Position numbers and translations under genes: made by a program
Source: Candidatus Peribacteria bacterium
GTDB lineage: Bacteria; Patescibacteriota; Gracilibacteria; Peribacterales; Peribacteraceae
Assembly (NCBI GenBank): GCA_023245865.1
Contig: JAHFJN010000001.1
Location: 263,649 to 327,648, forward strand
Length of the DNA: 64,000 nucleotides
Reading direction: 5' to 3'
Notes under the pieces: model-generated
Told to the model about the DNA's origin: nothing
Databases searched by the model: none
What the model saw: the letters and a program-made list of their open reading frames with translations, nothing else
Shown: positions 4,724 to 37,327 of the stretch, piece after piece
Layout: each line of letters starts with the position of its first letter
Position numbering within the stretch: position 1 is the stretch's first letter

Positions 4724-6364
<1,641 letters not shown>

Positions 6365-6419
6365 CTAGTAGGTTAGGAGATAGGAAATAGGAAATAGCTT
6401 CGTTAGAAGCATAAGAAAA

Positions 6420-6749
6420 TTATTTGACGAGACCGAGGACAGAATCGAGATGCAAAATCTTCACCTCGACGTCTTTACCATCTTTATCCTTTAACTTCAC
6501 CTCATCACCCGCGTACTTGCCAAAGAGTACCTTGTCACCGACTTTCAGGTAATCGTGGGGATTTGCCATGTCTTTGCCGATACCACCTTTACCGAGTGCA
6601 AGGATGATTCCTTCCTGAGGCTTTTCACCCTTCGCCGTGTCGGGGATGACAATACCAGAGGCCGTGACTTGTTCCGCCTCGAGTGGGAGAACGACGACGC
6701 GATCGCCGAGGGGTTGAATACTGACCGTGAGTTTGGGGAGGGATGCCAT
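6420..6749 (-). CDS. groES: Co-chaperonin GroES
   Basis: 109 aa: IQPLGDRVVV..ASGIVIPDTAKEKPQEG-like..VGDKVLFGKYAGDEVK. It lies immediately upstream of groEL on the same strand. Confidence 0.95.
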   Translation of the reverse strand: MASLPKLTVSIQPLGDRVVVLPLEAEQVTASGIVIPDTAKGEKPQEGIILALGKGGIGKDMANPHDYLKVGDKVLFGKYAGDEVKLKDKDGKDVEVKILHLDSVLGLVK

Positions 6750-6751
6750 AT

Positions 6752-6806
6752 GAATGGAGAATGTAGGATGTAGAATGCCTGCCTGCTGCAGGCAGGGAGA
6801 ATGTAG
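6752..6806 (-). repeat. ATGTAGAATG/ATGTAGGATG leader repeats flanking a GC palindrome in the groES 5' leader
   Basis: Plus strand has ATGTAGGATG at 6761-6770, ATGTAGAATG at 6768-6777, palindrome CCTGCCTGCTGCAGGCAGG at 6778-6796 and ATGTAG at 6801-6806. In the groES sense these read CATTCTACAT-type. Confidence 0.7.
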
Positions 6807-6831
6807 TGCGGCTGTCTCTGGCCGCAGTCAA

Positions 6832-6858
6832 TTAGCAGTCGGCATTTTAGAGTGATAA
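6832..6858 (-). promoter_or_regulatory. CIRCE operator (HrcA-binding inverted repeat) upstream of groES
   Basis: TTAGCAGTC-N9-GAGTGATAA versus consensus TTAGCACTC-N9-GAGTGCTAA. Confidence 0.8.
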
Positions 6859-6871
6859 TTTTTCCAGTCAA
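6844..6871 (-). promoter_or_regulatory. Putative sigma-70-type promoter of groES-groEL
   Basis: On the minus strand: TTGACT (6866-6871), 16-nt spacer, TAAAAT (6844-6849). The -10 overlaps CIRCE. Confidence 0.55.
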
Positions 6872-6877
6872 GGGATC

Positions 6878-8542
6878 TTGGTGACAGAGCGTACACTTGA
6901 TCGGATGTCCGATAGGAAACAGTCTTGGCTTGCTGCAGGAGCACTCCTTCTTTTGGTGCTCTGCCTCTACGCACCTTCACTCGAAAACGGTTTCGTTGAT
7001 TGGGACGACGGTTCACTCATCGAACAGAACCCGATCGTGCATGGACTCACGTGGGAGCATATCAAAAGCTCTTTTTCTACCTACGATCCGGAACTCTACA
7101 CGCCACTGACATTCTTAAGCTACCAACTGACCTACGCGATCGCCGATCTACAACCATTTGCGTATCACCTCGGGAATGTGATGCTCCATGCACTGAATGC
7201 GATTCTGATTCTTTGGATGGTATATGTATTGAGACGCAAAAAATTCGAAGCGTTCGTGTGTGGACTACTGTTCGCAGTCCATCCACTCAATACTGAGGCA
7301 GTTGCATGGGCGAGCGCACGGAAGGATGTGCTTGCGGCGTTTTTTTTCCTCTCATCCATTGTTGCGTATTTGTATAGAGGCGAGGGGAAAAAATATTATT
7401 TCCTGAGTATTCTGTTTTTTCTTTTGGGACTTCTCTCGAAGGTCAGCATCCTCATGCTGCCCCTTGCACTTGTTTTGATCGATCGATTGCAAGGCAGACA
7501 TTTCGATCGCAAACAATTGATGGAAAAAGCCCCGTACATGTTTCTGAGCATCGTCTTTGGAATCGTCGCAGTGTTTGGTAAGTTCGCAAATACATCTTTT
7601 TACTGGGAGAAATTTCTTCTCGGATGCAAAGCGATTGTTTTTTACCTCGGCAAATTATTTCTGCCCGGTCACTTTTCTCTTCTCTATCCTTACACGCAAA
7701 CAATTTCTCTCGCATCGACGGACATTCTTCTCTCCGTTCTTGCTGTGATCGCTCTTTGCGTTACATCGATCCTCGTACGTAAACGGTATCCTCTTGTTTT
7801 CTTTTGCTGGTGGTGGTACGTGATACTGCTTCTGCCAACCTTTACGACGATCGCCAAGGGGCACGATGCGGCACTGGATGTGTACTTTGCGTCTGATCGC
7901 TATGCCTATGTTCCCTCCATTGGGATCCTGATACTTATAGCGACAGTAGTCGATGTTCTTTACCGAAAATTCCAAGCAGTTGCCATCGCATTTGTCTCGT
8001 TCACTTTCCTCGTCCTCATCATGCTGACGTATCACCAGAGTCTTGTGTGGTCTGACACAGAATCACTCTTTCGGAGTGTCTTAGCATCATATCCCAATTC
8101 CCACGTGGCACATACGCAACTCGGCGTCGTCCTCTTCAATCGCGATGAAATCGATGGTGCTTTTGCAGAATTTCAGAAAGCGCTCGCCATCCGTCCCGAT
8201 GGAACTGCGTACTATGACATCGGACAGATCTATCTCAAAAAAGGAATGATCGATGAAGCAATGCAAGCGTACCGGAGTGCCATTGTCGCAAATCCCGTCG
8301 ATCCGGACCCGTACATTAATCTCGGTGCTCTTCTCCTACAGCAAGGCAAGGACAAGGAGGCACTCGCAATTCTTGAACCGGCAAAGGATTTGAAGTCCGA
8401 TTCCCGACTCTATATCAATTTGGGTCTCGCCTACGAGCATCTCGGACGCAAAAAGGATGCTATCGATGCCTACAAGCGTGCACTCGAACTTGATCCTGAG
8501 AATGAGGAGATCCGCCAATCACTGAGTGAGCTTTCGCAATGA
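6878..8542 (+). CDS. Polytopic membrane protein with C-terminal TPR repeats, TMTC/PMT-like (GT-C type) glycosyltransferase candidate
   Basis: 554 aa. N-terminus has NGFVDWDDGSLIEQNP and many TM segments. The C-terminus has TPR-like repeats (AFAEFQKALAIRPD.., AMQAYRSAIVANP.., AIDAYKRALELDPEN). GTG start listed; ATG 6905 is an alternative. Confidence 0.75.
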   Translation: MVTERTLDRMSDRKQSWLAAGALLLLVLCLYAPSLENGFVDWDDGSLIEQNPIVHGLTWEHIKSSFSTYDPELYTPLTFLSYQLTYAIADLQPFAYHLGNVMLHALNAILILWMVYVLRRKKFEAFVCGLLFAVHPLNTEAVAWASARKDVLAAFFFLSSIVAYLYRGEGKKYYFLSILFFLLGLLSKVSILMLPLALVLIDRLQGRHFDRKQLMEKAPYMFLSIVFGIVAVFGKFANTSFYWEKFLLGCKAIVFYLGKLFLPGHFSLLYPYTQTISLASTDILLSVLAVIALCVTSILVRKRYPLVFFCWWWYVILLLPTFTTIAKGHDAALDVYFASDRYAYVPSIGILILIATVVDVLYRKFQAVAIAFVSFTFLVLIMLTYHQSLVWSDTESLFRSVLASYPNSHVAHTQLGVVLFNRDEIDGAFAEFQKALAIRPDGTAYYDIGQIYLKKGMIDEAMQAYRSAIVANPVDPDPYINLGALLLQQGKDKEALAILEPAKDLKSDSRLYINLGLAYEHLGRKKDAIDAYKRALELDPENEEIRQSLSELSQ

Positions 8543-9850: not shown

Positions 9851-9937
9851 GCCGATGTGGCGGAATTGGTAGACGCGCACGCTTCAGGAGCGTGTATCCG
9901 CAAGGATGTGAGAGTTCGAGTCTCTCCATCGGCACCA
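9851..9937 (+). tRNA. tRNA-Leu (anticodon CAG), class II, CCA encoded
   Basis: GCCGATG acceptor pairs with CATCGGC. Anticodon arm is CACGC-TTCAGGA-GCGTG, with a long variable arm TATCCGCAAGGATGT and T arm GAGAG-TTCGAGT-CTCTC, then ACCA. Confidence 0.9.
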
Positions 9938-9978
9938 GTATGGAGAGACGAGAAGCCTGTGGTGAGCTTGACGAACCA

Positions 9979-22023: not shown

Positions 22024-23475
22024 CTATTGACGCAGTGCAGCAATCGTTTGCGTCACTGACGCGAGAGGAGCAGCAGAGGTGTCTGCGGCAATCGGAGCAC
22101 CGAGCAATTCTGCAATACCTCTACTGACGGGGTATTCCTTTGCAAGTGAGTGCGGCATTTTCTCATACCGAGACACGATCGTCTCGTGCCGGGTCGATCC
22201 ACTGCCGTACGTGACGGTGTTGTTCCAGCCAACTTCGCTGCTTGCGAGTGGGCGATTCCTTACGAGGAAGTTTGTCGGGGCGGTTGATGCAAAATACGGT
22301 CCTTCCAGCTGTACCATTCGACCATCCGGAATCCCGTACAAATCTACGAATGCTTCCTCTCCTACCGTGTGTCCGAGGAAAACCAGATCACCAGGTGTGT
22401 CATTCGTAAATGTCAGGTCCTGCTTTCCGGGGTACACAGTCGCGTCGATTCCCATGCCATATTGCTTGTAGTGGATCACGTACAAACTGTGATTTTTGCG
22501 CTCGTGAATGGGGAGTCCTGCCAGTACAACCGCACGCATCGTTGTCGTCGCTCCTTGGCAGATTCCTCCACCCGCTTCCGGCACCAAGTCGTGCCCGTTC
22601 ACGATCACGAGCGAATCCAGCCAACCATTTCCGTGCGTGATCGGGCCTCCGAGCGTTGAGTTGAACGAGAATACTTTGCCCATCGGCGCGATAGCACCGT
22701 TAATTTTTTCATTGATCACTTTGTGAACATTCTTGATGCGTCCGTACGGTGAATGTGAGAATTCTGATTTGCCCGTCGAGAGGTGGACAAGAGTCTGCGG
22801 ACCCTCCGCGCCGGGGTAGGTGATCGTTCCCAATTTATATTGCAGTGATACCGTGAGCTCTGCTTGATCGTTGCCAAGGGCAGACACCATCTGCTCTGCA
22901 ACCGAATCTACATCAAGTGTAAATCCGTCGACAGGATTTCCCTTCAGCTCCACACGCATGATCGTATGATCTTTGTACGTATTGCTGACAAGAGCATGTT
23001 GCACGATTGGGATCTGTCCAAGACTAAACTCTATAAGCGAAGCTGCAATCTTATCTTTGTTCAGGAAAAACGGATGGTTTGGTACGGATGCATTCAATGT
23101 TACCCATTCAGGATGCGCCTGCAGGTTTGTCTGCCACGTCACATCGAGTGGATGGTCGTTCCCTTCCGATACAAAATGAAGAGAAATTGTTTTCTTCAAA
23201 AATTCTCTGCGCTCCTGCACAGAGTACGTGAGTCTCGAAGCGGAAATGTCCGTGCCCAGTCGAGTTCGAATACGGTTACTGAGCCTACGTGCGACGCGCT
23301 GTGTTGAAGGATCCATGGGAACAATGAATTCCTGCAGCGGCCGGACTGCCGTGCGAACAATAGCCGCAATGCCTGTCTCTGAGGTCATATGGATCATCGC
23401 AGCTTGCATACACACAAAGACACCAAGGAACCCCAAAGTGTGACACTGTTGACTTTTATTTCTTTTTGTTTTCAT
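22024..23475 (-). CDS. VanW family protein
   Basis: 483 aa. C-terminal block FSFNSTLGGPITHGNGW..GGGICQGATTTMRAVVLAGLPIHERKNHSLYV..GIDATVYPGKQDLTFTND matches the VanW signature. It abuts the Sel1 gene with a 0-nt gap. Confidence 0.8.
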   Translation of the reverse strand: MKTKRNKSQQCHTLGFLGVFVCMQAAMIHMTSETGIAAIVRTAVRPLQEFIVPMDPSTQRVARRLSNRIRTRLGTDISASRLTYSVQERREFLKKTISLHFVSEGNDHPLDVTWQTNLQAHPEWVTLNASVPNHPFFLNKDKIAASLIEFSLGQIPIVQHALVSNTYKDHTIMRVELKGNPVDGFTLDVDSVAEQMVSALGNDQAELTVSLQYKLGTITYPGAEGPQTLVHLSTGKSEFSHSPYGRIKNVHKVINEKINGAIAPMGKVFSFNSTLGGPITHGNGWLDSLVIVNGHDLVPEAGGGICQGATTTMRAVVLAGLPIHERKNHSLYVIHYKQYGMGIDATVYPGKQDLTFTNDTPGDLVFLGHTVGEEAFVDLYGIPDGRMVQLEGPYFASTAPTNFLVRNRPLASSEVGWNNTVTYGSGSTRHETIVSRYEKMPHSLAKEYPVSRGIAELLGAPIAADTSAAPLASVTQTIAALRQ

Positions 23476-23503
23476 TTGATCGTATTATACCATATTTATA
23501 TTA

Positions 23504-24868
23504 TTATGCAATCATAATCTTCCTTTGCAATCCTCCTAGCCCCAGGGCCACAACGCTTGCTAAAACCACGAACAATGAATCAAACGCCGCTCCTGTCGAA
23601 GGAAGCTCAGCGACAACACCCGATTGGCCGACCGTCACGCGTTCGTTGAGGGAAAGGTACCGAAGGTCACTGCCGGAGATACTTGCTGCATTATCAATGA
23701 TAGATCCGCTTTGCAGATCCGAGGCAATAAGCATCGTGTACGTGCGCTTCCAAACCTCCCCCGGCTGCAGCACAGGAAGATTCCACGTGATTTGTCCATC
23801 ACTCGACAGATCTCCACCAGCCGCACTCACCACACTCATTTGAGTAGGATCAAAGCGATCAGTGACGACGGCATCGGCGATTGCGTGTGTCATAACGTTC
23901 TGGACATAGACGGTGTAGTGCACTGTTCCGCCCGGCACCACCTCATTCGTGTCCGAAATTTTACGAAAGAGAATCTTGCGTGCAAGCTCCATTGGTTTCT
24001 GCTGAACAGGAGCATCATCGAGTTCGAGTGTGGGCTTCTCGGCCGTAAACCGATTTTGATACGGATACCACGGTACGATGTTTGTATTGTCCGAAGCGGA
24101 AACTCCACCCACTCTCGCCATTGCGTGGACGTACGTGTACGGTGTCAAGTGACGCCGAATCATTGTGTGAATGTGGAATACCTTCTTTTCATTCGGTCCA
24201 AAGGAGATGCTCGGCCATGTGATACTCGGATATGTATTGATGGATCCCTCGGGGTCCATGCTCTGAATACCAAGCAAATCAGACAGCGAGACAGAAACAT
24301 CTGTTTGTCTGGCATATTCGCTCGTATTGAGCACCGTAACAGTGTAATCGAGCGTCTCTCCCGGTCGTGCGGTTTCCATACTATCCGTAATACTGACGCG
24401 ATACGTATTATTGGTGAAAGGCGCGCTGCCAACGGCTGTGACATCTGTAGCGCTTGATCCCTCGGACTCTGCGCGTGCAAAAATCTGTGTGCCCTGCGTG
24501 AGGTTCGGAAGCAAGTTCACGTTCACGGCAAGAAGCATCGGGTAGCCGTCCTGCACGGTAACATGGTCCCAACGAATCGTATTTCCTCTCCTGTATCCTC
24601 CGTTATCCGCACTTACCGTGTTCGCTTCAGGAGGAATGACGAATGTCACATTCACGTCGCGGTTATAGCTGTAGTTCTGCTGCAGACGAATGATGTAAAC
24701 GAGGCTTCCGCCCGGTGCCACCACATCCTTACCATCGCCCAATGTTATAAAGAGAGGGGCGTTTTGGGCTGACCCGGACCTCGCCTCAACGAAGAGGAAT
24801 CCTGCTACGAGGATCGCTGCCAATGCCGTTAGGAGGCTCAACTGATTGAGGAGGGGCAAGCGCTTCAC
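23504..24868 (-). CDS. Cell-surface repeat protein with a C-terminal LPXTG-type sorting signal
   Basis: 454 aa, GTG start, N-terminal signal peptide. It has repeated beta-sandwich-like units (..GETLDYTVTVLNT.., ..GGTVHYTVYVQNV..). The C-terminus is ELPSTG plus a hydrophobic stretch plus RK. Confidence 0.8.
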   Translation of the reverse strand: MKRLPLLNQLSLLTALAAILVAGFLFVEARSGSAQNAPLFITLGDGKDVVAPGGSLVYIIRLQQNYSYNRDVNVTFVIPPEANTVSADNGGYRRGNTIRWDHVTVQDGYPMLLAVNVNLLPNLTQGTQIFARAESEGSSATDVTAVGSAPFTNNTYRVSITDSMETARPGETLDYTVTVLNTSEYARQTDVSVSLSDLLGIQSMDPEGSINTYPSITWPSISFGPNEKKVFHIHTMIRRHLTPYTYVHAMARVGGVSASDNTNIVPWYPYQNRFTAEKPTLELDDAPVQQKPMELARKILFRKISDTNEVVPGGTVHYTVYVQNVMTHAIADAVVTDRFDPTQMSVVSAAGGDLSSDGQITWNLPVLQPGEVWKRTYTMLIASDLQSGSIIDNAASISGSDLRYLSLNERVTVGQSGVVAELPSTGAAFDSLFVVLASVVALGLGGLQRKIMIA

Positions 24869-24897
24869 AAGGGGATGGGTGAAAGAAAAAGGAGAGC

Positions 24898-24926
24898 ATT
24901 AAAACAGAGTAAAGTATTATTGTCAA
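24898..24926 (-). promoter_or_regulatory. Putative promoter of the LPXTG-VanW-Sel1 gene string
   Basis: Minus strand: TTGACA (24921-24926), 17-nt spacer, TTTAAT (24898-24903). Confidence 0.5.
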
Positions 24927-25002
24927 ATATAATCTCAAAATAACTCAAATCAGCCTTTCTACTGTCCCATAGGGAGAGGGCCTGGGTAAGGGAAGCCACC
25001 CG

Positions 25003-25218
25003 TTACTTCGCCACAAACGCCGTCGCCCCGAGCCACGCCAGGTCGAAGACAGCCTTCATTGTCCGTGCAAATGTCGGGCTCTCCATAATCACGCCAAGCA
25101 GTTCATCTTTATTGAGCGACACCACTCCGAACGTGTCACCCTGAGCTCGCCGAAGGGTGGAGGCAGTGTGTGATACAATTATGCTCATATGCAGAAAACC
25201 TGCACTCACTGCAGTCAT
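25003..25218 (-). pseudogene. Probable C-terminal remnant of a TrmB-like regulator (paralog of 26934-27707)
   Basis: GDTFGVVSLNKDELLGVIMESPTFARTMKAVFDLAWLGA aligns by eye with ADTVALFAYDDELTIVKVENQNFADMFQKIFECLWERA at the C-terminus of the intact regulator. It has the same position and orientation relative to a Cys-rich paralog. The N-terminal wHTH part is missing. Confidence 0.4.
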
Positions 25219-26886
25219 GCATTCGAAGTCACGGATGATGATCTAAAATTCTATGACAAAGTTTCACCGGTGATTGCTGGTAGAAAGTTTGCAATTCCCG
25301 CACCCGTTGAGTGCTATGACTGTCGCCAACAACGTCGCCTTGCAATGCGTAACGAGAGGAAACTTTATTCACGAACATGCGATCTTTGCCATGCAAGCAT
25401 TATTTCCAACTATTCTCCGGACAAGAAAGTGACGGTGTATTGCCCTGCCTGTTGGTGGGGAGATTCCTGGAGCGCACTGTCATTTGGTCGAGACTTCGAC
25501 TTCAATCGTCCATTTTTCGAGCAGTACCGCGAGTTATCACAGAGTATGCCAAAAATCAGCAGCATCACACTCGGTGATAATATCAATAGTGACTACACAC
25601 ACGATGGCTACCGTCTGAAAAATTGCTATTTAATTTTCGACGGAGAACAAGCGGAGGATTGTTACTATGGTGAACTCTACGGACTTATCAAGGATTGCTG
25701 CGACTTTTTGTACGTGAAGGAGTGCGAGCTTTGTTATGAGTGCATCCACTGCAACAAGTGTTTTGATCTGCGGTTTTCCCGCTATTGCAATAATTGCTCA
25801 TCCTCTTGGTTTCTTCTCGATTGTAACAGCTGCAAAAACTGCATCGGCTGCACGAATCTCGTGCAGAAGGAATACCATATTTTCAATCAGCCATATTCGA
25901 AGGAGGAATTTGAATCAAAGAGAGTCGCAATGCGACTTGATACGCACAGCGGTGTAGTGGAACTACGGAGGAAGGCAGAGGACTTTTTCCTCACACATCC
26001 CAGGCGCGCGACACGCGGATACATGAACGAAGATGTCAGCGGCGATAATCTGAGTGAGTCAAAAAATACCTTCGATTCATATGATTGCATGGGCATGCGT
26101 GATTGTCGTTACTGCACCAACTGCATGATGGGCTGCAACGACAGTTATGACATCGATGCATGGGGCACTGATACTGCGAACTGTTACAATTGTGCGTACG
26201 TTGGGGCCGGGGCTCAGAACATGCTTGGTTGTTTCTATTGTGGATTTGGTGTCAGCAATTTATCTTACTGCATTTTCTGCTTACAGGGTGGTAAGGGAAG
26301 TTTGTTTGGATGTGAGGCGATTCGTAAGGAAGGATACTGCATCTTGAACAAGCAATACTCCCAAGATGAATATGAAGAGATGGTTCCTCGCATCATCGAG
26401 CATATGCAGAAGACAGGAGAATGGACGCAATTCTTTCCTTTGACCATGTCCCTGTTTGCGTACAACGAAACCGTTGCAAATGATTATTTTCCCCTAGCGA
26501 AGCAAGAAACACTGAACAGTGGCCTGCAGTTGAAGGAGACCGATGATCGTATGCCTGACGTGGAGAGAGTGATCAACGCATTGGAGCTTCCTGACTCGAT
26601 CAACGATATTCCCGATGACATTCTAAACTGGGCAATCCGCTGTGATCAATCTGGGAGACCGTTCAAAATCCAAAAGGCGGAGCTTGAATACTATAGAAAA
26701 ATGACCATACCGCTTCCACGAAAACACTTTGACATTCGTCATGCGAAACGGCTCGCATTACGCCCTCCAAGGAAATTGTGGAATCGACAATGTACGAAGT
26801 GCCAGAAAGTGATAGCAACCAGCTATGCGCCGGACAGTCCAGAGATTGTGTATTGCGAATCTTGCTATTTGCACCTTGTTTATTGA
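25189..26886 (+). CDS. Cys-rich protein with zinc-ribbon-like N- and C-terminal caps (paralog 1), unknown function
   Basis: 565 aa: CTHCSHAFEV..ECYDCRQQRRLAMRNERKLYSRTCDLC..VYCPACWW at the N-terminus, a dense Cys central region, and CTKCQKVIATSYAPDSPEIVYCESCYL at the C-terminus. TGATACAAT (25171-25179) lies 9 nt upstream of the ATG. Confidence 0.8.
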   Translation: MQKTCTHCSHAFEVTDDDLKFYDKVSPVIAGRKFAIPAPVECYDCRQQRRLAMRNERKLYSRTCDLCHASIISNYSPDKKVTVYCPACWWGDSWSALSFGRDFDFNRPFFEQYRELSQSMPKISSITLGDNINSDYTHDGYRLKNCYLIFDGEQAEDCYYGELYGLIKDCCDFLYVKECELCYECIHCNKCFDLRFSRYCNNCSSSWFLLDCNSCKNCIGCTNLVQKEYHIFNQPYSKEEFESKRVAMRLDTHSGVVELRRKAEDFFLTHPRRATRGYMNEDVSGDNLSESKNTFDSYDCMGMRDCRYCTNCMMGCNDSYDIDAWGTDTANCYNCAYVGAGAQNMLGCFYCGFGVSNLSYCIFCLQGGKGSLFGCEAIRKEGYCILNKQYSQDEYEEMVPRIIEHMQKTGEWTQFFPLTMSLFAYNETVANDYFPLAKQETLNSGLQLKETDDRMPDVERVINALELPDSINDIPDDILNWAIRCDQSGRPFKIQKAELEYYRKMTIPLPRKHFDIRHAKRLALRPPRKLWNRQCTKCQKVIATSYAPDSPEIVYCESCYLHLVY

Positions 26887-26933
26887 GCATTTACTTTCAC
26901 TATCATTAATTAATATATGATAGTAAATATGGA

Positions 26934-27707
26934 TTAGTTCTTTCCCGTATTTTTAGTCACTGGTGCACGCTCCCACAAACACTCGAAGATTTTTTGAAAC
27001 ATATCTGCGAAGTTTTGGTTCTCGACCTTCACGATTGTCAGTTCATCGTCGTAGGCGAAGAGTGCAACAGTATCGGCGAAAATCACCATCTCAGAAATAA
27101 ATTGCATCTCTGTGGGCAGCAGTCGGATCTCGTATTCGTCATCCTGTGGGATCTCCTTGATGTACCGCCGCGCTCCTGCATTGTCGACGAAGAGCTCGCG
27201 TCCGCGCAGTCGCGCTTTACCAAACAACAGGGGCACGACGTTTTGTCCGAATGCGTTGAACATCACTTCAGCGTTGAAGAACGCGCAAAAATCTTTCTGG
27301 AGCAGCACGTCACGGTACACCTGCTTCATCCCGTCGATGCCGTGGAGTGTCGTCACACGAGGGGGGCTGACGAGGGAGGGAGTCAACGATTGGAGGTAGG
27401 GAAGAGCTGATTCAAGCAGCATCTGCGTTTCACTCCACTGCTTCTCTCGATCTTTGGCATAGTGCACTAGTCTGTGGACGGGTTCTGCGATGAACTGCAG
27501 GACTTTGCCGGATTCAATATGGGAAACGAGAGCCTTCTCTTCAAGACTCTGGAGTACCAAATACGTATGACTGCGTGATTGCTTGGATGCCTTGGCGATA
27601 GCGCTTACGCGCCCGCTTTTCATGGCAAGCAGTGCTAAGTAGACCTCGACTTCTTTGTCATCGAGTCCAATGCGCTTGAGCAATGGTCGAATCGCAGAAT
27701 GTTGCAT
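26934..27707 (-). CDS. TrmB-family transcriptional regulator
   Basis: 257 aa. N-terminal wHTH: LLKRIGLDDKEVEVYLALLAMKSGRVSAIAKASKQSRSHTYLVLQSLEEKALV, plus a TrmB-like C-terminal domain. Confidence 0.8.
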   Translation of the reverse strand: MQHSAIRPLLKRIGLDDKEVEVYLALLAMKSGRVSAIAKASKQSRSHTYLVLQSLEEKALVSHIESGKVLQFIAEPVHRLVHYAKDREKQWSETQMLLESALPYLQSLTPSLVSPPRVTTLHGIDGMKQVYRDVLLQKDFCAFFNAEVMFNAFGQNVVPLLFGKARLRGRELFVDNAGARRYIKEIPQDDEYEIRLLPTEMQFISEMVIFADTVALFAYDDELTIVKVENQNFADMFQKIFECLWERAPVTKNTGKN

Positions 27708-27727
27708 TTGTCTATAATTATAGACAA
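27708..27727. promoter_or_regulatory. Perfect 20-bp palindrome, candidate operator with two face-to-face TATAAT boxes
   Basis: TTGTCTATAATTATAGACAA starts 1 nt upstream of the regulator ATG (27707). TATAAT reads on the plus strand at 27713-27718 and on the minus strand at 27717-27722. Confidence 0.6.
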
Positions 27728-27812
27728 TATGAGTTTAATTGTAAAGTATGCTAATAATTGACTCTTGATGTAGGCCATTTACAAATGTCAATAAATGTTC
27801 ATAATGATGGAC

Positions 27813-29510
27813 ATGAGTATCCGTCCATGTCGTTTATGCCAAGCAATGTTTGAGGTCGATGAAGAAGATCTTCATCTCTACGAAGAGATTTCTCCAACCT
27901 TCAACGGAAAAAAGGAATTGATTCCTCCTCCAACACTTTGCCCGTCGTGTAGGTCGCAGCGACGGCTCGCGTGGCGCAATGAAAGAACGCTCTACAAGCG
28001 AACGTGCGATGCATCCAGAAAAAGTACGTTGTCCGTTTTTTCACCGGACAAACCCTTCAAAGTGTATAGCGTTGAGCAGTGGTATGGTGATGCATGGGAT
28101 CCAAAATCGTACGGAAGAGATTTCGATTTCAATCGACCGTTTTTCCCGCAGTTTCGTGAGCTCATGGAAGCAGTGCCGCAGCTTGCACTTTCCGTCACAA
28201 ATAATCAAAACTCCGATTATGTGAATCAGGCAGGGTGGCTGAAAAACTGCTATCTGATTTTTGAAGCTGACTTTGCTGAGAATTGCATGTACTCGCATCA
28301 CATAGTCGATTCACGAAGCACGTTGGACGTACTCCAAGCATCGAGCCTCGAGCTCTGCTACGAGTGCGTGTTCTGTCGCAATAGCTATAACCTTCGCTAC
28401 TCACAGCAATGCGAGAACTGCTCTGATTCGTGGTTCCTCAAAAATTGCGTCGGGTGTCGCAATTGCTTTGGATGCATGAATCTGCGCAATAAAGAATTCC
28501 ACATCTATAACCAAAAATATTCTGAAGACGAGTACCGAGAGAAATTGGCCAGCATGCATCTCGATTCCTATTCTGCACTGAAGGTTTTGCGTGAGCAGTT
28601 CGTAGCATTTGCACAGCAATTTCCGAATCAATATTATTACGGAACGCAGAACGAAAACTCGACCGGAAATTACCTTTGGAACACGCAGAATTGCAGGAAT
28701 TGTTACGAAATTCAGGAATGCCAGGACTGCAAGCACGTTGTAAATTCTCGTTTCATGAAAAGGGTTCATGACACGACCGTGTTCGGCTCACAAAAAGGCG
28801 TGGAATATTGCTATGAAAATCATGAGATCGGAGACGCTGTCCGCAACGTCGCATTCAGCGATCAGATTTGGACAGGCGTGAGCAATGTGTATTATTCGAA
28901 GCTCTGCCTGCAGAGTTCTCACGATCTTTTCGGCAGCATGGGGCTGCGACACAGCAGTTACTGCATTCTCAATAAGCAATACACGAAAGAAGAATACGAG
29001 AATCTTGTGCCACGCATCATCGAACACATGAGAAAAACAGGAGAATGGGGGGAATTTTTTCCGATCGAGATCAGCCCCTTTGCATACAACGAAACTCTCG
29101 CATCGGTGCATTTCCCTATGGAGCAGAAGGAAGTGGATGCTCGAGGGTGGAAGTGGAAGGACATTCAAGTGGAGGAGCCGAAAGTTGATCAAATTGTCGA
29201 AGCTTCTGACTTGCCAGAAACAATCGCAGAAGTCTCAGATGATATTGTGAACAGCGCCGTTCGGTGTGAGAAGTCAGGTCGATTGTTCAAGATTATCAAG
29301 CAGGAGCTCGATTTCTACCGCCAACAAAATCTTCCTTTACCCCACGTACATCCCGATGAGCGACATCTTGAACGTGTCGCACTTCGAAACCCCCGAACGC
29401 TCTATGCTCGCACCTGCATGAAGTGCCAGAAGCCGATTGAAACGACCTATGCGCCAGACAGGTCAGAAATTGTGCATTGTGAGGAATGCTACCTGAACGA
29501 GGTCTATTGA
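27813..29510 (+). CDS. Cys-rich protein with zinc-ribbon-like N- and C-terminal caps (paralog 2), unknown function
   Basis: Listed ORF starts at 27795. ATG 27813 (MSIRPCRLC..) matches the paralog 1 N-terminus and sits 7 nt after CATAAT (27800-27805). It shares long blocks with 25189-26886: GRDFDFNRPFF, LKNCYLIF, VPRIIEHMxKTGEW, FAYNET, YAPDxxEIVxCExCYL. Confidence 0.8.
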   Translation: MSIRPCRLCQAMFEVDEEDLHLYEEISPTFNGKKELIPPPTLCPSCRSQRRLAWRNERTLYKRTCDASRKSTLSVFSPDKPFKVYSVEQWYGDAWDPKSYGRDFDFNRPFFPQFRELMEAVPQLALSVTNNQNSDYVNQAGWLKNCYLIFEADFAENCMYSHHIVDSRSTLDVLQASSLELCYECVFCRNSYNLRYSQQCENCSDSWFLKNCVGCRNCFGCMNLRNKEFHIYNQKYSEDEYREKLASMHLDSYSALKVLREQFVAFAQQFPNQYYYGTQNENSTGNYLWNTQNCRNCYEIQECQDCKHVVNSRFMKRVHDTTVFGSQKGVEYCYENHEIGDAVRNVAFSDQIWTGVSNVYYSKLCLQSSHDLFGSMGLRHSSYCILNKQYTKEEYENLVPRIIEHMRKTGEWGEFFPIEISPFAYNETLASVHFPMEQKEVDARGWKWKDIQVEEPKVDQIVEASDLPETIAEVSDDIVNSAVRCEKSGRLFKIIKQELDFYRQQNLPLPHVHPDERHLERVALRNPRTLYARTCMKCQKPIETTYAPDRSEIVHCEECYLNEVY

Positions 29511-29562: not shown

Positions 29563-31806
29563 ATGGCTTTGCGCTACCTCCACATCGTCGTGCCACAGGG
29601 GTCGCAGGAAAACAAGAAGCTGGAGTCCAAGTTCCAGGAATTGCTTGTGAATATGCGAAATACCTTCACAGGGAAGTCAATTTCGCTCGAATTCTTCGGA
29701 TACAATCAATACACGTATTTCTTCATCGTCCTCGATGAGAAGTTGCTCGAAACCGTCGAGGGATTGATCTACGCGACGTTCCCGGACGCCGAGATCAAAG
29801 AGACGCAAGACTATACACAGATCTTTGACTCAAAAAAGCTGGCGCTCGCGGGAGCGGCCATCAGCATGCATCACTCGGACATTTACCCTATCAAAACGTA
29901 CGATCTCTTCGAGGAGGACAGTTGCTCCCGGCTCTTCTCCGTGGTCTCCAAAATCGGAAGTCAAGACCAAGTGTGGGTGCAGATCATCACGGAGCCGCAG
30001 GACGATACTGGTGCCTATCACTTGCTTCGAAAAATCAAGACGCGGCTCGCGATCTTTTTTCACTTCTTCAGCATCCGCGACCGCATGCGCGAGGGTGGCC
30101 GCAAGTCCATCAACCATGTGCGGCATGATCTTGCCAAGAAAAAGGCGGAACAGAAGCCGTACCGGGTGAGTATCCGTTGCGCGTACATAGCTGAAACGGC
30201 CGAAGCTGCGAAAAGAAAACTGGAGGCGGTCATTTCTGCGTTTGCTCAATTCAATGATCGCGACATCAACAGTCTGCATGGGCACCTTGAACACAATACC
30301 GCATCATTTATTCAAAAATACCGCGCACGTGTACAAGGCACACCATGCATCATGAATACTCAGGAGGTCGCGACCCTCTATCATTTTCCGAATGCCGATT
30401 ACGTCTCACACGTCGTGCATGTGCTTGCACGCAAGGCCGATCCACCGCAAGATCTCCCCAAGATCGGCGAGAAGGACGTCAGCGGCTTTGGCATCACGAA
30501 CTATCACAATAACTTCGTGCCGTTTGGCATCAAGCGCAGTGACCGCCGGCGTCATCTCTACACGGTCGGAAAATCAGGATCGGGCAAGAGCAAATTACTC
30601 GAGCTCCTCATCAACGAAGACATTCAATCGGGGCAGGGGATTGCGGTTCTCGATCCGCACGGAGATCTCGTTGATGCGGTGTTGCGCTACATCCCCAAAC
30701 ACCGTATCGACGACGTGGTGCTCTTTAACCCTGCCGACACCGACTTCCCGATAGCGTTCAACCCCATGGAAATCGTGAGCGACGAATTCAAAATGCAAGT
30801 GACGATCGGTTTCATTCAGATCTTCAAAAAACTCTTTGGAGGCAACTGGACATACCGCCTTGAGCACGTCCTTCGCTATACGACCCTCGCACTCCTCGAT
30901 AGCCCAAACACAACGGTTCTGAGCATCCTTAAAATGCTGACAGATAAAAACTATCGGCAAAAGATCGTAGCGCGGATCGAAGACAGTGTCGTCAAAAGTT
31001 TCTGGGTTTCGGAATTTGCTGCATGGAGTGAAAAGTTCGATGCCGAGGCGATCACGCCGCTGCTCAATAAAGTCGGCCAGTTCGTTGCAACGGATATGAT
31101 CAGAAACATCATAGCGCAGCCTCAGACAAAGTTCGACATTCGCGACATTATGGACAATAAGAAAATTCTTCTCATGAAAGTAAGTAAGGGCCTGCTCGGA
31201 GAGGAAAATTCTTCGCTGATCGGTTCTATGATCATCACAAAGCTCTATCAAGCTGCCATGAGCAGAGCCGATACACCCGAGGAACAACGAAAAGACTTTT
31301 ACTTCTACGTCGATGAGTTTCAAAACTTTGCAACCGAAACCTTCGCAGAAATCCTCAGTGAAGCTCGCAAGTACCGACTGAATCTGACGCTTGCGCATCA
31401 ATACATGGGACAACTCAGTGACATCGTCCGCGAAACAGTCTTTGGAAACATTGGTTCGATGGTGAGCTTCCGTGTGGGCGCAGAGGATGCGCTCGTGCTC
31501 GAAGGAGAGTACAACCCCATTTTCAAGGAGCGAGACATCATCAACCTGGGTGTTCGTGAGTTTTACATCAAGATGCAGGTCAACGGCGAGCAGCGTGAAG
31601 CGTTCTCCGGTCGTACGCTTGATGCTCCGCAGGTAACAACGGACTACACGCAGGAGATCATCGAAGCATCACGGAGAAAATACTGCACGCCACGTAAAGA
31701 TGTCGAAACTGCTCTCAAGCAATGGGACGAAGCAGCATCAAAGCCTGCAGAGAAAGGAGAAATTCCGGAGGAGGATCTGGAAACGTTTGAGGAGCCGCTC
31801 ATTTGA
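29563..31806 (+). CDS. Soluble VirD4/TraD-like (type IV coupling protein-like) P-loop ATPase
   Basis: 747 aa. Walker A GKSGSGKS, Walker B-like FYFYVDEFQNF, then ARKYRLNLTLAHQYMGQL. No N-terminal TM segment is seen. TATAAT at 29546-29551. Confidence 0.8.
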   Translation: MALRYLHIVVPQGSQENKKLESKFQELLVNMRNTFTGKSISLEFFGYNQYTYFFIVLDEKLLETVEGLIYATFPDAEIKETQDYTQIFDSKKLALAGAAISMHHSDIYPIKTYDLFEEDSCSRLFSVVSKIGSQDQVWVQIITEPQDDTGAYHLLRKIKTRLAIFFHFFSIRDRMREGGRKSINHVRHDLAKKKAEQKPYRVSIRCAYIAETAEAAKRKLEAVISAFAQFNDRDINSLHGHLEHNTASFIQKYRARVQGTPCIMNTQEVATLYHFPNADYVSHVVHVLARKADPPQDLPKIGEKDVSGFGITNYHNNFVPFGIKRSDRRRHLYTVGKSGSGKSKLLELLINEDIQSGQGIAVLDPHGDLVDAVLRYIPKHRIDDVVLFNPADTDFPIAFNPMEIVSDEFKMQVTIGFIQIFKKLFGGNWTYRLEHVLRYTTLALLDSPNTTVLSILKMLTDKNYRQKIVARIEDSVVKSFWVSEFAAWSEKFDAEAITPLLNKVGQFVATDMIRNIIAQPQTKFDIRDIMDNKKILLMKVSKGLLGEENSSLIGSMIITKLYQAAMSRADTPEEQRKDFYFYVDEFQNFATETFAEILSEARKYRLNLTLAHQYMGQLSDIVRETVFGNIGSMVSFRVGAEDALVLEGEYNPIFKERDIINLGVREFYIKMQVNGEQREAFSGRTLDAPQVTTDYTQEIIEASRRKYCTPRKDVETALKQWDEAASKPAEKGEIPEEDLETFEEPLI

Positions 31807-33805: not shown

Positions 33806-34900
33806 CTATTTTTCAGAAACGAGAGCAGGTTTTGGAGACGAAGCGACCGACCATCGGCTCTCTTTGCTCTCTCCATAGGCATTTTTCATCATGGTGAGAT
33901 TATAATAGATTGCGTCGTCCATGTCGCTGAGGACTCCGTCTTGAACGGCTTGCTTAATTTCATGCACGCCATCGGCGATGCTGTGCGTTGGCTTAAAGTT
34001 CAGGGCCTCGGCGAACTTTTGGAAGCGCACCTGATAGGAGCGGACATCGCTGTTCGCGTTAACGTAATCAATGCCGACTGCAGGAAAACATTTTTGAATT
34101 TCTTCGGCAAGTCCACGGATCGTGAAGTTCAGATGGTCTCCTCCAACATTGAAGATCTGCCCTTTGACAACCGCTGGCTCCGCACGAAGAACACGCAGAA
34201 TGCCATCGATCGCATCAAGGATGTGAATGAAAGGTCGGTACTGATCACCTTCGCCGTTCACAATAATGTTTTTGCCCTTGATGCAGTTTTTTGCCATCGC
34301 ATTGACAGCCAAATCGAACCGCATCCGGTTCGAGAGACCAAAGAGGGTACTGAAGCGAAGAACTGTCACGCGGAAGTCATCACTGCTGAGATCAAGTAAT
34401 TCGCGTTCGCTCGCGAGCTTCGTGAGCGCATAGAGCGTGATCGGACCGGTGTGCGAAAATTCATCGAGAAGTCTGCCAGTCGAAGATCCGTACACGCTGC
34501 ACGATGAACTGAAGATGAATTGTTGAACCTCCTGTGCGCGCGCAAGTCGTGCGATCGCGGTCGTCGCGAGGTAGTTGGTACTGATCGTGAGATCGGGGTC
34601 CAGATCGGCGGTTGGGTCATTGGAAATACTCGCGAGGTGAATGACAACGTCGACATTACTGAAGATAGAGCTGAACTGATCAATGTTGCGGATGTCCTGC
34701 TTGTACACATGCAGGTGCGGATGATGCAGGACGCTCTCGAGCGGAGTCTCGCCGAATGCAAAGAGATCGAGCACACTGACTTCGTATCCCTGTTCCAGCA
34801 ATATTGGCACGAGCATCGATCCCAAATAGCCCGCACCACCCGTCACGAGAACGTGGCGGCCTCGAGCGTTTGAACCTGCAATGCTATCATGAAGGCGCAT
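33806..34900 (-). CDS. NAD-dependent sugar epimerase/dehydratase (extended SDR)
   Basis: VLVTGGAGYLGS Rossmann motif and YALTK catalytic motif. Listed ORF extends to 34966; ATG 34900 (MRLHDS..) is the more conservative start. It abuts the upstream fusion gene with a 0-nt gap. Confidence 0.8.
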   Translation of the reverse strand: MRLHDSIAGSNARGRHVLVTGGAGYLGSMLVPILLEQGYEVSVLDLFAFGETPLESVLHHPHLHVYKQDIRNIDQFSSIFSNVDVVIHLASISNDPTADLDPDLTISTNYLATTAIARLARAQEVQQFIFSSSCSVYGSSTGRLLDEFSHTGPITLYALTKLASERELLDLSSDDFRVTVLRFSTLFGLSNRMRFDLAVNAMAKNCIKGKNIIVNGEGDQYRPFIHILDAIDGILRVLRAEPAVVKGQIFNVGGDHLNFTIRGLAEEIQKCFPAVGIDYVNANSDVRSYQVRFQKFAEALNFKPTHSIADGVHEIKQAVQDGVLSDMDDAIYYNLTMMKNAYGESKESRWSVASSPKPALVSEK

Positions 34901-36614
34901 GACAGCAATTAAAGAGCAATTGAATCGCTTTATCAACCCCTTGGTCGGTCTTCCTTTGGCGCTCATTCTTTCTCTCTATCTCAATGCGCCGACGCTCGTC
35001 CATCGATTCACAGACGCAAACTGGAGTAGTGCCATAGAGCAGAGCCTCCTTGAGCAAGATGAAGCGCGGTACATCGCTAAAACCCACGAAATTGTCGATG
35101 GGCACTGGAACATCGGCAACGCCAGCCTGAAGGAACACAATAATGCAATTTCACCGACCGGATACATCGAGTACGTGACAGCTGCGTTCATGAAAATGAC
35201 CGGACTGGACATAGTAAACGCGATAGCGATCACAGATTTGCTGTACACATTCCTGAATATTTTCCTGACATACCTGTGGGTGCAAAAACTTCTCAAAAAT
35301 AAATTCGCGACTGTCGTTCTCATCTTGATGTTGATGCTCGACGTGTGGAGCTTTCAGGGCGGGCTCGTTCGCGATTCAACGCCGAAAATAACACTCTTGC
35401 TTGTGAATATGTATTTGTGCGTCGTGGCACTCAGGGATACACAAACGCACTGGCTCCGTATCGCGCGAGGCACGCTCCTTGGGCTAATGTTCTACTCGTA
35501 TTCCTACCATTGGACAACGTTTCTGTGCTTTGAAATGCTCATGTGGTTCCATGGACTATTCATCGAAAAAAAGAATTGGAAAAGTCTCACGATCGATTGG
35601 CTCGAAGTCTTCGGTGTTTTCCTTGTGATTTCTCTCCCGCATGCAGTCACGCTTGCAGGCAGTAGTCACACACCGGAATTCATCGAGGGCTACCGACATT
35701 TTGGCTTGATAGAAACACATTTACCCTCTGCGCCTTCTCTTCAATTTGTGCTCATCCTCTGCATCGCAGCGCTCCTCGCAGCGCGCATGACTCGCCTCAC
35801 ACGTGACAGAACATCACTCCTTCTTCTGATGATTCTCGGCGGGGGACTGATCGCAGTGAATTCAAATGTAATCTCAGGCCGCGAAGCGGACTTCCTCGGA
35901 CACTACTCACGCGTACTCTCGGAATTTATATTGCTCACTGTAATCTACGGCGTTCTTAAATTCTTGAAACCAATCGCAGCCCGTGGAATTTTTTACGGCA
36001 TTACCATTATCTTCGTCCTCCGCCAATTTTCCGCACTGCCAGATGCGCTTGCGAAGGCCGATGAAGCAAGAAAATATTGGAGTGAAACAAAAGCGTGGGA
36101 GTTAATGCAGTGGATAGACGCCAATACGCAGCGTGAGAGTGTCATACTCGCCCCCTATGTGATGTCGGGGTACATTCCCGCGCTCACGGACAACTACGTT
36201 CTCACCGGTCCAGCCGCACAATTCTACTTTGTCACTGACAAAGAAATGCTCGAGCGCTACTTCATTGAGCTCTCGTTTTTCCCGGAGACCGCCGAACACT
36301 TCGACCCCGGTCAGCAGCATGTCTTTGGCAATTACCCGGGCCAAGCGTGGGCGCGAGCGCGTACTGCCTATCAATTGCGTACCCTCTTTCAAAAGCCATA
36401 CCCAAAGACTGTCCAGGATTTCATCGTGCATCAGGAACTCCTCAGTGAACTCAATGCTTGGTACCGAAGGCCCGACTACGAAAAGGCGAAGAAGTTGATG
36501 CAGAAGTACGAAATCGATTACTTGATCACCGATCACGATTTCCCCGAAACCTTCAAAACGATGTTTCAAGAACTTAAAACGATCGGAACGTATGTGATTT
36601 ACAAGAAAATATAG
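34899..36614 (+). CDS. Large polytopic membrane protein, unknown function (possible GT-C-like)
   Basis: 571 aa with about 11 TM segments followed by a soluble C-terminal domain. TATCAT (34885-34890) lies 8 nt upstream of the ATG. Confidence 0.65.
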   Translation: MTAIKEQLNRFINPLVGLPLALILSLYLNAPTLVHRFTDANWSSAIEQSLLEQDEARYIAKTHEIVDGHWNIGNASLKEHNNAISPTGYIEYVTAAFMKMTGLDIVNAIAITDLLYTFLNIFLTYLWVQKLLKNKFATVVLILMLMLDVWSFQGGLVRDSTPKITLLLVNMYLCVVALRDTQTHWLRIARGTLLGLMFYSYSYHWTTFLCFEMLMWFHGLFIEKKNWKSLTIDWLEVFGVFLVISLPHAVTLAGSSHTPEFIEGYRHFGLIETHLPSAPSLQFVLILCIAALLAARMTRLTRDRTSLLLLMILGGGLIAVNSNVISGREADFLGHYSRVLSEFILLTVIYGVLKFLKPIAARGIFYGITIIFVLRQFSALPDALAKADEARKYWSETKAWELMQWIDANTQRESVILAPYVMSGYIPALTDNYVLTGPAAQFYFVTDKEMLERYFIELSFFPETAEHFDPGQQHVFGNYPGQAWARARTAYQLRTLFQKPYPKTVQDFIVHQELLSELNAWYRRPDYEKAKKLMQKYEIDYLITDHDFPETFKTMFQELKTIGTYVIYKKI

Positions 36615-37261: not shown

Positions 37262-37327
37262 AGCTTTTTATGGTGGTTTACCATGAGCCAATAATTAGTG
37301 TCATCCTGAGCACAGTCGAAGGACGAG

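Follow-up and report, generated by a model that had tools for sequence, protein, structure and literature searches.

A TrmB-family gene remnant in a probably contracted array of cysteine-rich protein genes that ends with a soluble VirD4-like ATPase gene in Candidatus Peribacteria

Coupling ATPases are often encoded beside their substrates, as in loci of type IV and type VII secretion systems (T4SS, T7SS). The variable arrays at such ATPases, T7SSb EssC modules and T4SS effector clusters, combine a conserved ATPase of the FtsK/VirD4 superfamily with an array of paralogs that varies in copy number. A similar combination was analysed here in a 64,000-nucleotide (nt) stretch of DNA of Candidatus Peribacteria bacterium (assembly GCA_023245865.1, contig JAHFJN010000001.1, positions 263,649 to 327,648; referred to as the window). 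It comprises two plus-strand genes for cysteine-rich proteins, CysA and CysB, a minus-strand regulator gene between them (TrmB-1), a downstream gene for a soluble VirD4-like ATPase, and a 71-codon open reading frame (ORF), the stub, on the minus strand before CysA. Unlike in the T7SSb EssC and T4SS clusters, the ATPase gene lies at the downstream end of the array and the paralogs belong to one family of apparently cytoplasmic multi-zinc proteins, and no secretion apparatus, toxin or immunity domains or sign of rapid turnover were seen at this locus. An earlier note, made from the DNA letters of the window, had interpreted the stub as the decayed regulator of a tandemly duplicated module.

The ATPase (29563-31806, plus strand; 747 amino acids, aa) is like the type IV coupling proteins (T4CPs) VirD4, TrwB and TraD in its P-loop domain, which is homologous to that of TrwB and VirD4. 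Unlike these proteins, it has no N-terminal transmembrane anchor and carries about 300 aa of DUF8128 instead, and within the 64-kb window its gene is not placed beside virB4, a relaxase gene or a T4SS gene. In a 2025 survey, 5,713 VirD4-type (T4CP) homologues were counted in Patescibacteria, only 148 of them near virB4, and the authors stated that exaptation of these homologues "cannot be ruled out" (PMC12102498). According to the same paper, Ca. S. epibionticum could grow epibiotically without its t4cp homologue, in contrast to other T4SS genes, which were essential (PMC12102498). The window ATPase belongs to these orphan T4CP homologues of Patescibacteria.

TrmB-1 (26934-27707, minus strand; 257 aa) is an intact member of the TrmB family (PF01978; archaeal TrmB, TrmBL1 and TrmBL2), which it resembles in its winged helix-turn-helix (wHTH) domain and in divergent transcription from its neighbour. 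It differs in its C-terminal ~170 residues, which match neither the TrmB sugar-binding domain nor any family. Also unlike the described family, at least two deeply diverged paralog lineages (TrmB-1 and TrmB-2) with their own putative operators occur in arrays of the present type, and some arrays hold more TrmB-like genes.

The array and the TrmB-2 remnant

The region is quite probably a contracted copy of an array that is conserved in Peribacteria, Peregrinibacteria and Gracilibacteria of the candidate phyla radiation (CPR), with the stub as a regulator gene cut short by a deletion. In the usual layout, a divergent TrmB-2 gene is followed by 1 to ~15 same-strand genes for ~565-aa Cys-rich paralogs (Cys genes), further minus-strand TrmB-like genes are placed inside, and the DUF8128/VirD4-like ATPase gene closes the array. 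Locus L095 has the canonical form with TrmB-2, four Cys genes and the ATPase gene. The window array retains only CysA (25189-26886, plus strand), TrmB-1, CysB (27813-29510, plus strand) and the ATPase, together with a remnant of TrmB-2. All genes were present as the earlier note had described them.

Related loci (L numbers) were sampled from species-representative genomes. The sample consisted of 76 loci encoding CysA relatives, and further loci were added later. All 76 were from CPR or unclassified lineages, save one short contig labelled Micrarchaeota, and the majority were from Peribacteria, Peregrinibacteria, Gracilibacteria or Patescibacteria. Among the 76 loci, 57 arrays with two or more Cys genes were counted, 32 of which included a TrmB-like gene. 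By script count, 13 of the 25 arrays whose 3' end was visible had the ATPase gene directly downstream; in L040, a 14th case, overlapping ORFs hid it from the script. The ATPase gene was immediately upstream in two further arrays. Solitary Cys genes (19 cases) had an ATPase gene nearby in 0/19 and a TrmB-like gene in 1/19 cases. Viewed from the ATPase side, TrmB genes and Cys arrays were directly upstream in two of three sampled homologs, and neither was found at the third. The earlier note had suggested a gene-neighbourhood analysis, and TrmB-like and VirD4-like ATPase genes indeed proved to be recurrent neighbours of the Cys-rich family. Up to 10 Cys genes were visible per 20-kb locus, and about 15 on contig MFYJ01000013 (L076 and L027). 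They were often a few bases apart or overlapping, with gaps of 3-12 nt in the tighter arrays.

The stub ORF (25003-25218, minus strand) encodes 71 aa from an ATG start. Its residues 28-71 were 84% identical to residues 208-251 of the 251-aa TrmB-2 protein of L040 (44 aa, E=3e-25, BLASTP). In related loci 18 tblastn matches (50-84% identity) were obtained, all at the 3' end of ORFs of 251-285 aa (length from the first start codon), i.e. of full-length genes. DNA homology to TrmB-2 extended from the stop codon at 25003 to ~25137-25140, with differences mostly at third positions, and thus agreed with the remnant of 25003 to ~25140 delimited in the earlier note. By homology, the stub is unambiguously the C-terminus of a TrmB-family protein from a 5'-truncated TrmB-2 gene, as had been proposed; the alternative of an unrelated intact small gene at 25003-25218 was checked, and 25003-25137 is the TrmB-2 tail.

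This remnant (25003-25137, minus strand; BLASTP, tblastn and DNA alignment) comprises the last 44 codons and the stop codon. The 5' part of the stub ORF (25138-25218, minus strand; its first 26-27 codons) is unrelated to TrmB-2 and runs antisense to the CysA start and the spacer upstream of it. Stub ORF and CysA overlap by 30 nt on opposite strands, corresponding to the first 10 codons of CysA. About 207 of 251 TrmB-2 codons (~82%) were lost, the wHTH domain included, and neither a wHTH nor a Pfam match was found in the stub. The earlier note had postulated a deletion of the wHTH half and the operator; both are gone, but the loss was much larger than half of the gene. Junction and stub were recovered with 100.000% identity to the window, over 16-22 kb, in two independent public assemblies, and therefore the junction is real and no assembly artefact.

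No stops and no frameshifts were present in the remnant. Non-synonymous differences amounted to 0.09-0.15 per site, vs 0.04-0.13 between intact genes. Synonymous sites were saturated against every available relative, and the ratio of non-synonymous to synonymous change (dN/dS) is thus uninformative on timing. The signs of neutral decay that were looked for (frameshifts, stops, raised non-synonymous change) were not found. The undecayed state is compatible with a recent deletion, or with a fragment still under selection. Taken alone, the stub is ordinary genome decay.

Short remnants of the TrmB-2 C-terminus, ~72 codons each, were also observed in other lineages (L086/L087 and L084/L085). In L086 (5847-6065) and L087 (JGI) the remnant ends 41 nt away from the start of a lone Cys gene, and the ATPase gene comes next after that gene. 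In L084 (~110-327) and L085 (NCBI VGKZ01000088, Logan) an in-frame stop is located just upstream of the remnant, and a fatty-acid desaturase gene adjoins it. Both remnants begin at almost the same codon (YDPNLIEILL...), with differing upstream sequence. The shared breakpoint could mark a deletion hot spot or a selected C-terminal piece. As remnants arose independently in other lineages, array contraction that clips TrmB-2 appears to be recurrent. A homolog search with a 47-aa query yielded no more than five short proteins, and for two of these the contigs lacked the length needed for interpretation.

It is quite unlikely that the 71-codon ORF, or its C-terminal TrmB-2 peptide, is a selected functional small protein, maybe a dimerisation or anti-repressor fragment. 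Such a role would fit the open frame with its ATG start, its annotation as a coding sequence (CDS) in public records, the 44 retained residues that are undecayed despite saturated synonymous sites, and the recurrence of short TrmB-2 C-terminal remnants, two of them with almost the same YDPNL breakpoint. However, the first 26-27 codons of the frame are the antisense 5' part without relation to TrmB-2, and no promoter-like site was found for the stub ORF by consensus scan. The breakpoint is at codon ~207 here vs ~180 in the other remnants, so that no common domain boundary is apparent, and the L084 remnant has the in-frame stop just upstream of its homologous part. That only fresh remnants were seen is explained by ascertainment, the search being blind to full deletions and decayed stubs.

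Operators and promoters

TrmB-1 matched the PF01978 wHTH at residues 10-68 with 47.0 bits (gathering cut-off 25.6). For residues ~70-235 no Pfam match was obtained even at E<=10, and the TrmB sugar-binding domain was not matched. The NCBIfam equivalogs were missed by a wide margin (TrmBL1 16.8 bits vs a cut-off of 650, TrmBL2 13.1 vs 530). TrmB-1 orthologs were found in L013 (78% identity), L033 (75%), and L038 and L027 (51-55%).

The TrmB-1 start codon is directly abutted by a 20-nt perfect palindrome, TTGTCTA-N6-TAGACAA (TTGTCTATAATTATAGACAA, 27708-27727), to which the earlier note had drawn attention. It is the longest perfect palindrome in the window (chance expectation ~0.02 per composition-preserving shuffle), and the same inverted repeat is present beside the start codons of the TrmB-1 orthologs in L013, L033, L027 and L038. 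Among 81 loci the exact pattern was found only at TrmB-1 orthologs, and it occurs once in the window. Given this conservation in orthologous loci, the palindrome is a putative TrmB-1 operator. The best sigma-70-like minus-strand site, TTTACA-17-TATAAT (27717-27745, 11/12 matches, consensus scan), has its -10 hexamer inside the palindrome, which points to autorepression. TrmB-1 would repress itself through the palindrome overlapping its own -10. Such an overlap is expected of an autoregulated repressor and is a further resemblance to the TrmB family. From the position of the promoter, a leaderless TrmB-1 mRNA is suggested.

For CysB, a promoter-like site TTTACA-16-CATAAT (27778-27805, plus strand; 10/12 matches, consensus scan), located ~50-85 nt from the palindrome, predicts a leaderless start at about ATG 27813. 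The CysB ORF opens at 27795, and the likely start at ATG 27813 is backed by N-terminal alignment of CysB with CysA and the family. Control of CysB and the ATPase by TrmB-1 is possible.

CysA is preceded by an extended -10-like element, TGATACAAT (25171-25179, plus strand; read from the sequence), 9 nt before the ATG. The earlier note had placed this element within the remnant; it is located in the non-homologous 5' part of the stub ORF, i.e. in the own spacer of CysA. Upstream of CysA no -35 element, no operator and no promoter with at least 9/12 consensus matches were detected. The distance of 9 nt from the ATG suggests a leaderless or near-leaderless CysA transcript. The extended -10 in its own spacer would now drive CysA as a leaderless mRNA, and TrmB-2 would no longer control it. 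The -10 elements of TrmB-1, CysB and CysA are all located 7-10 nt upstream of the ATG, suggesting leaderless mRNAs.

At intact TrmB-2 genes, a different site, TGT(T)GTAGA-N6-TCTACA, is conserved 10-30 nt upstream of the start in ~15 loci. No TGTAGA-N6-TCTACA operator was found in the window. A second conserved motif, CTGTTGGAC(G/A)AA, was observed towards the Cys gene, at a distance of ~70-90 nt from the TrmB-2 operator, in the intergenic regions of L040 (~9925-9940), L020, L021, L007, L060 and L018. This motif might represent either the -35 region of the Cys promoter or an additional binding site.

Origin of the junction

In related loci, TrmB-2 normally faces a Cys gene across a region of 120-250 nt. 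The most economical explanation for the window would be a single deletion that started inside TrmB-2, ran through the control region and ended just upstream of CysA. It would have removed ~207 TrmB-2 codons, the promoter and the TGTAGA-N6-TCTACA operator, and probably at least one Cys paralog as well; how far the deletion extended, and that it took further Cys genes with it, is inferred and was not directly observed. Because the remnant is undecayed, the deletion would be recent on the scale on which these genomes diverged.

The right end of the deletion would be the left arm of a repetitive extragenic palindromic (REP)-like hairpin in the upstream spacer of CysA. This hairpin (25133-25160, plus strand; motif match) follows the pattern GTGTCAYCCTGAGC-N4-5-CGAAGGRTGAC, has a degenerate right arm and coincides exactly with the deletion junction. 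When folded, canonical copies give a hairpin of ~10 bp. In L076 and L027, Cys genes have the same element ~30 nt before them, and in L045 and L069 it separates the ATPase gene from a Cys gene. The Cys-gene spacers of L076 and L027 have the order hairpin, -10-like TGTATACT, ATG, like the CysA spacer. This common layout argues that hairpin, TGATACAAT and ATG constitute the native spacer of CysA and do not belong to the TrmB-2 remnant. There is an overlap between the left arm of the hairpin and codons 27-29 of TrmB-2 (window CGTGTCACC vs L057 CGTGTTGCC, 7/9 match), by which a microhomology-mediated deletion is possible, being allowed but not proven by the match. No Rfam match was found in 24800-27900.

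In these genomes the REP-like hairpin (GTGTCAYCCTGAGC-N4-5-CGAAGGRTGACAC) is dispersed in intergenic spacers, often ~30 nt before the ATG of a Cys gene or between the ATPase gene and a Cys gene. Sites were recorded in the window at 25133-25160 and 37297-37325, and in L076 (6386, 15355), L027 (1135), L045 (5080), L069 (6239), L067 (2639, 4448) and others. The second window copy (37297-37325) abuts what looks, by eye, like the 3' end of a tRNA gene.

The closest CysA orthologs were found in L080 (76% identity), L081 and L077 (both 69%), L078 (63%), and L001 and L016 (60%), and none of them is directly preceded by TrmB-2. Another Cys gene precedes the ortholog in L080, L081, L001 and L016, a ParE/YafQ toxin gene in L077, and in L078 it stands alone. 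Stub and CysA were therefore probably not original partners, and the paired unit assumed in the earlier note is not supported by these neighbourhoods. In L077 the ParE/YafQ-type toxin gene (771-1067) is directly upstream of the first gene of the array, so that a toxin-antitoxin module, not TrmB-2, flanks this array.

Several findings weigh against the contracted array with a recent deletion. No close relative (>~80% identity) with an intact TrmB-2 beside a CysA ortholog was found. The remnant is undecayed, the breakpoints in L084/L085 and L086/L087 are nearly the same at ~72 codons, and the C-terminal piece could thus be kept by selection. Regulators and targets are loosely paired: the Cys gene after TrmB-2 belongs to different orthogroups between genomes, the TrmB-1 orthologs in L027 and L038 are seemingly followed by other genes (by-eye reading), and L080, the closest relative, has no TrmB-1 between its CysA and CysB orthologs. 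The palindromes overlap the promoters of the regulators themselves and not the Cys promoters. The 19 solitary Cys genes and one ATPase gene (L096) have no partner nearby.

That a single Cys orthogroup beside TrmB-2 had been lost from the window was considered and rejected, as the Cys genes adjoining TrmB-2 comprise several orthogroups. In L080 (3-1329, 1428-3125, 3237-3959) only 112 nt separate the CysA ortholog from the CysB ortholog, and the upstream Cys gene is split into two ORFs, with the equivalent of residues ~278-386 missing. According to this layout, regulators and array genes come and go between close lineages.

As an alternative to the deletion, a rearrangement could have moved CysA and its hairpin spacer beside an already truncated TrmB-2 via REP-like elements or paralogs. 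Consistent with this, the gene after TrmB-2 varies between genomes, TrmB-1 is absent from the L080 interval, CysA orthologs are found alone or at the head of other arrays, and a dispersed hairpin element marks the junction. However, one deletion accounts for all features, and no second junction, duplication or inverted segment was found in the window, so that a rearrangement has a very low probability.

The ages of the paralogs bear on the duplication proposed earlier. Paralogs within a locus were 41% identical in the median and 61% at most, and for 94% of the array genes a different genome held a closer relative than the array itself. CysA and CysB are 45% identical end to end. A CysB ortholog of 87% identity was found in L080; those in L052, L054 and L056 (53-55%) are each immediately upstream of the ATPase gene, and the CysB orthogroup is usually the last before it. 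Judged by these identities, CysA and CysB are members of different old orthogroups and not a recent duplicate, and at only 30% identity TrmB-2 is an ancient paralog of TrmB-1. Taken together, the 30% between the regulators, the 45% between CysA and CysB and the closer relatives elsewhere argue against a tandem duplication. That this lineage underwent a tandem duplication of a unit of regulator and Cys gene, after which the first regulator copy decayed, is extremely improbable and already contradicted by the evidence: minus-strand TrmB-family sequence indeed precedes each of the two plus-strand Cys genes and the stub aligns with the C-terminus of the neighbouring regulator, but this alignment is weak, with a pairwise E of 0.001 and 36% identity over 25 aa, compared with 84% to a different paralog family that has its own orthologs and operator, and no recent within-array duplicates were found anywhere. 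Overall, the earlier observation was confirmed and its interpretation partly supported, and we prefer the single deletion in a contracted array.

Cys-rich family, ATPase and flanking genes

CysA and CysB are both 565 aa long and contain 41 (7.3%) and 28 cysteines, respectively. Neither has a signal peptide or a transmembrane segment, and they are presumed to be cytoplasmic zinc proteins. CysA has a zinc-ribbon module at each end and two beta-hairpin or solenoid-like Cys-rich segments mid-protein. Two near-invariant four-Cys sites with four CxxC pairs in all (C5/C8/C42/C45 and C535/C538/C556/C559) are each placed beside an Arg-rich helix, and the N- and C-terminal modules of the Cys proteins are alike. 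The family is uniform in length (~545-600 aa). More than 6,600 matches were obtained in a word-indexed search, and at least 2,279 clusters at 50% identity in an exhaustive profile search (E<=1e-30).

An AlphaFold2 model computed from 115 sequences reached a predicted local distance difference test (pLDDT) score of 87 and a predicted template-modelling score (pTM) of 0.88. Its solenoid-like segments (~138-177 and 281-335) each end with a KEYxIFN/CILNKQYS motif and helices. An earlier model from 21 sequences was poor mid-protein and gave no Foldseek match. With the 115-sequence model, the Foldseek matches in the PDB were limited to left-handed beta-helices without significance (best E=0.11, TM ~0.1), and in BFVD only local zinc-ribbon matches and no significant neighbour. 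The Cys proteins matched no Pfam, NCBIfam or PADLOC family. On CysA and CysB, PF23477 (zf_Tbcl_2) and PF13451 (zf_Tbcl) remained below threshold (17-18 bits at the C-terminus vs 27; 14.5 bits at residues 57-89), and some homologs of the family carry zf_Tbcl domains in precomputed annotation. A PDB profile search showed nothing beyond a LIM-like similarity of the zinc finger at the C-terminus (E~0.01).

Among phage families, PHROGs gave only a weak match, phrog_15341, and a tblastn search of GenBank phages with the Cys proteins gave none. A single solenoid module is present in 225-aa phage proteins of phrog_15341 (L088 9683-10360 and L089 9719-10396, IMG/VR). These share the solenoid-like repeat ending C..L..KEY(H/Y)IFN.P.SKE.FE, which corresponds to CysA residues ~145-250; the similarity covers only ~60 residues, with local E values of 1e-5 to 1e-11. 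Unlike the Cys family, each of them is a short protein of one module, poor in cysteines and lacking the zinc-ribbon ends. A "cysteine-rich" gene cluster in a Peribacteria genome paper was considered as this family and rejected, since it encodes large extracellular pappalysin-like proteins.

The ATPase scored above the Pfam cut-offs for PF02534 (T4SS-DNA_transf; 39.9 bits vs 20.1) and PF10412 (TrwB_AAD_bind; 34.3 vs 20.5) and also matched DUF87. Its N-terminus is annotated as PF26449 (DUF8128) in precomputed annotation. Walker A (GKSGSGKS) and Walker B-like (YVDEF) motifs were recognised by eye in the translation, and TrwB (1e9r) was the closest solved structure (E=5e-5). No transmembrane segment was found, the maximum 19-residue Kyte-Doolittle hydropathy being 1.04, so that the soluble VirD4-like ATPase of the earlier note stands. 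The NCBIfam T4CP equivalogs were missed (best conju_CD1115, 58.7 bits vs 250; TraD models 17-47 vs 366-648), and none of the large ORFs scanned in the window matched a T4SS or relaxase family. Orthologs at array ends were 52-80% identical, with 52-78% for those that close the sampled Cys arrays, and the best 120 homologs 69-80%. No paper was found in the literature that mentions DUF8128 or pairs these lineages with tandem zinc paralogs.

With low confidence, the likeliest role of the Cys proteins is that of clients or adaptors of the ATPase, because the linkage is conserved, the orthogroups are ancient and one-to-one, the proteins appear to be cytoplasmic zinc-binding modules with basic helices, and several regulators occur per array. 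The Cys proteins would be alternative clients or specificity adaptors of a hexameric FtsK/VirD4-type motor, and subsets of the paralogs would be switched on by separate ligand-responsive TrmB-like repressors. Tentatively, the locus might thus be the remnant of an undescribed system specific to Peribacteria, Peregrinibacteria and Gracilibacteria, in which an exapted soluble DUF8128-T4CP motor is combined with up to ~15 orphan-fold multi-zinc paralogs and their own TrmB-like repressors. Such a combination would serve as a dedicated machine of ATPase and adaptors that handles nucleic acids or proteins, possibly at the host interface, and it would explain the role of thousands of orphan T4CP homologues in Patescibacteria. 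The connection between Cys proteins and ATPase is one of gene neighbourhood, and a physical or functional partnership is putative.

Alternatively, the Cys paralogs could be effector cargo that is recruited by the VirD4-like ATPase and exported via a Patescibacteria T4SS into host cells. This is unlikely, in spite of the homology of the ATPase to T4CPs and of the general tendency of coupling ATPases to adjoin substrate genes. The thousands of T4CP homologues in Patescibacteria, mostly far from virB4, also fit export (PMC12102498). Against export, the ATPase has no membrane anchor, no T4SS genes were found in the 64-kb window, and the t4cp homologue of Ca. S. epibionticum is dispensable for epibiotic growth (PMC12102498). 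Moreover, the predicted proteins are tightly folded multi-zinc proteins with a structured C-terminus and no disordered charged tail, and the paralogs are old and one-to-one across genomes, without rapid turnover.

A further possibility, of low probability, is a defence against phages or other mobile elements in which diversified zinc-finger sensors act with a HerA/FtsK-like motor. The ATPase matched PADLOC mad8 (4e-13) and HerA models, the TrmB-1 wHTH is weakly like CasR/Csa3 (CasR 6e-5), and the arrays contain many paralogs in variable copy number. However, only the ATPase and the wHTH matched components of PADLOC; for the Cys proteins there was no PADLOC match and no recognisable nuclease or other effector domain. 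The high conservation of the ATPase across its top 120 homologs, its location among housekeeping genes and the ancient orthogroups of the paralogs also argue against defence.

Through the stub, a conserved and apparently undescribed gene array was encountered in one CPR branch. It contains a very large unannotated family with no Pfam or NCBIfam model and, despite a confident AlphaFold model, no structural neighbour. In the array, the genes of this family are linked with that of a soluble VirD4-like ATPase of high conservation and with genes of TrmB-type regulators whose putative operators are clear and conserved by lineage. The linkage offers candidate partners for one clade of orphan T4CPs (cf. 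PMC12102498) as well as concrete candidate operator sequences.

Directly beyond the stub, an LPXTG-type sortase-anchored protein with DUF11/CLIPPER repeats is encoded at 23504-24868 (minus strand), and a VanW-domain protein on the same flank at 22024-23475 (minus strand). This flank (22024-24868) is not common to related arrays, and the 76 loci contained no recognised homolog of the LPXTG protein. Other large ORFs of the window have housekeeping or envelope functions (ClpB, GroEL, DnaK, Obg, CCA enzyme, PrmC). A 571-aa ORF at 34899-36614 (plus strand) without a Pfam match, similar in size to the Cys-rich proteins, was rejected as a family member because it is unrelated to CysA (BLASTP E>7).

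For practical use, it should be noted that public gene calls list the stub as a CDS and clip 52 conserved residues of CysA. In L082, the stub is annotated as a 71-aa CDS (5441-5656, equal to window 25003-25218). CysA is called 52 codons late in the same record (5783-7324, window 25345-26886), as a protein of 513 aa that has lost the conserved N-terminal zinc ribbon.

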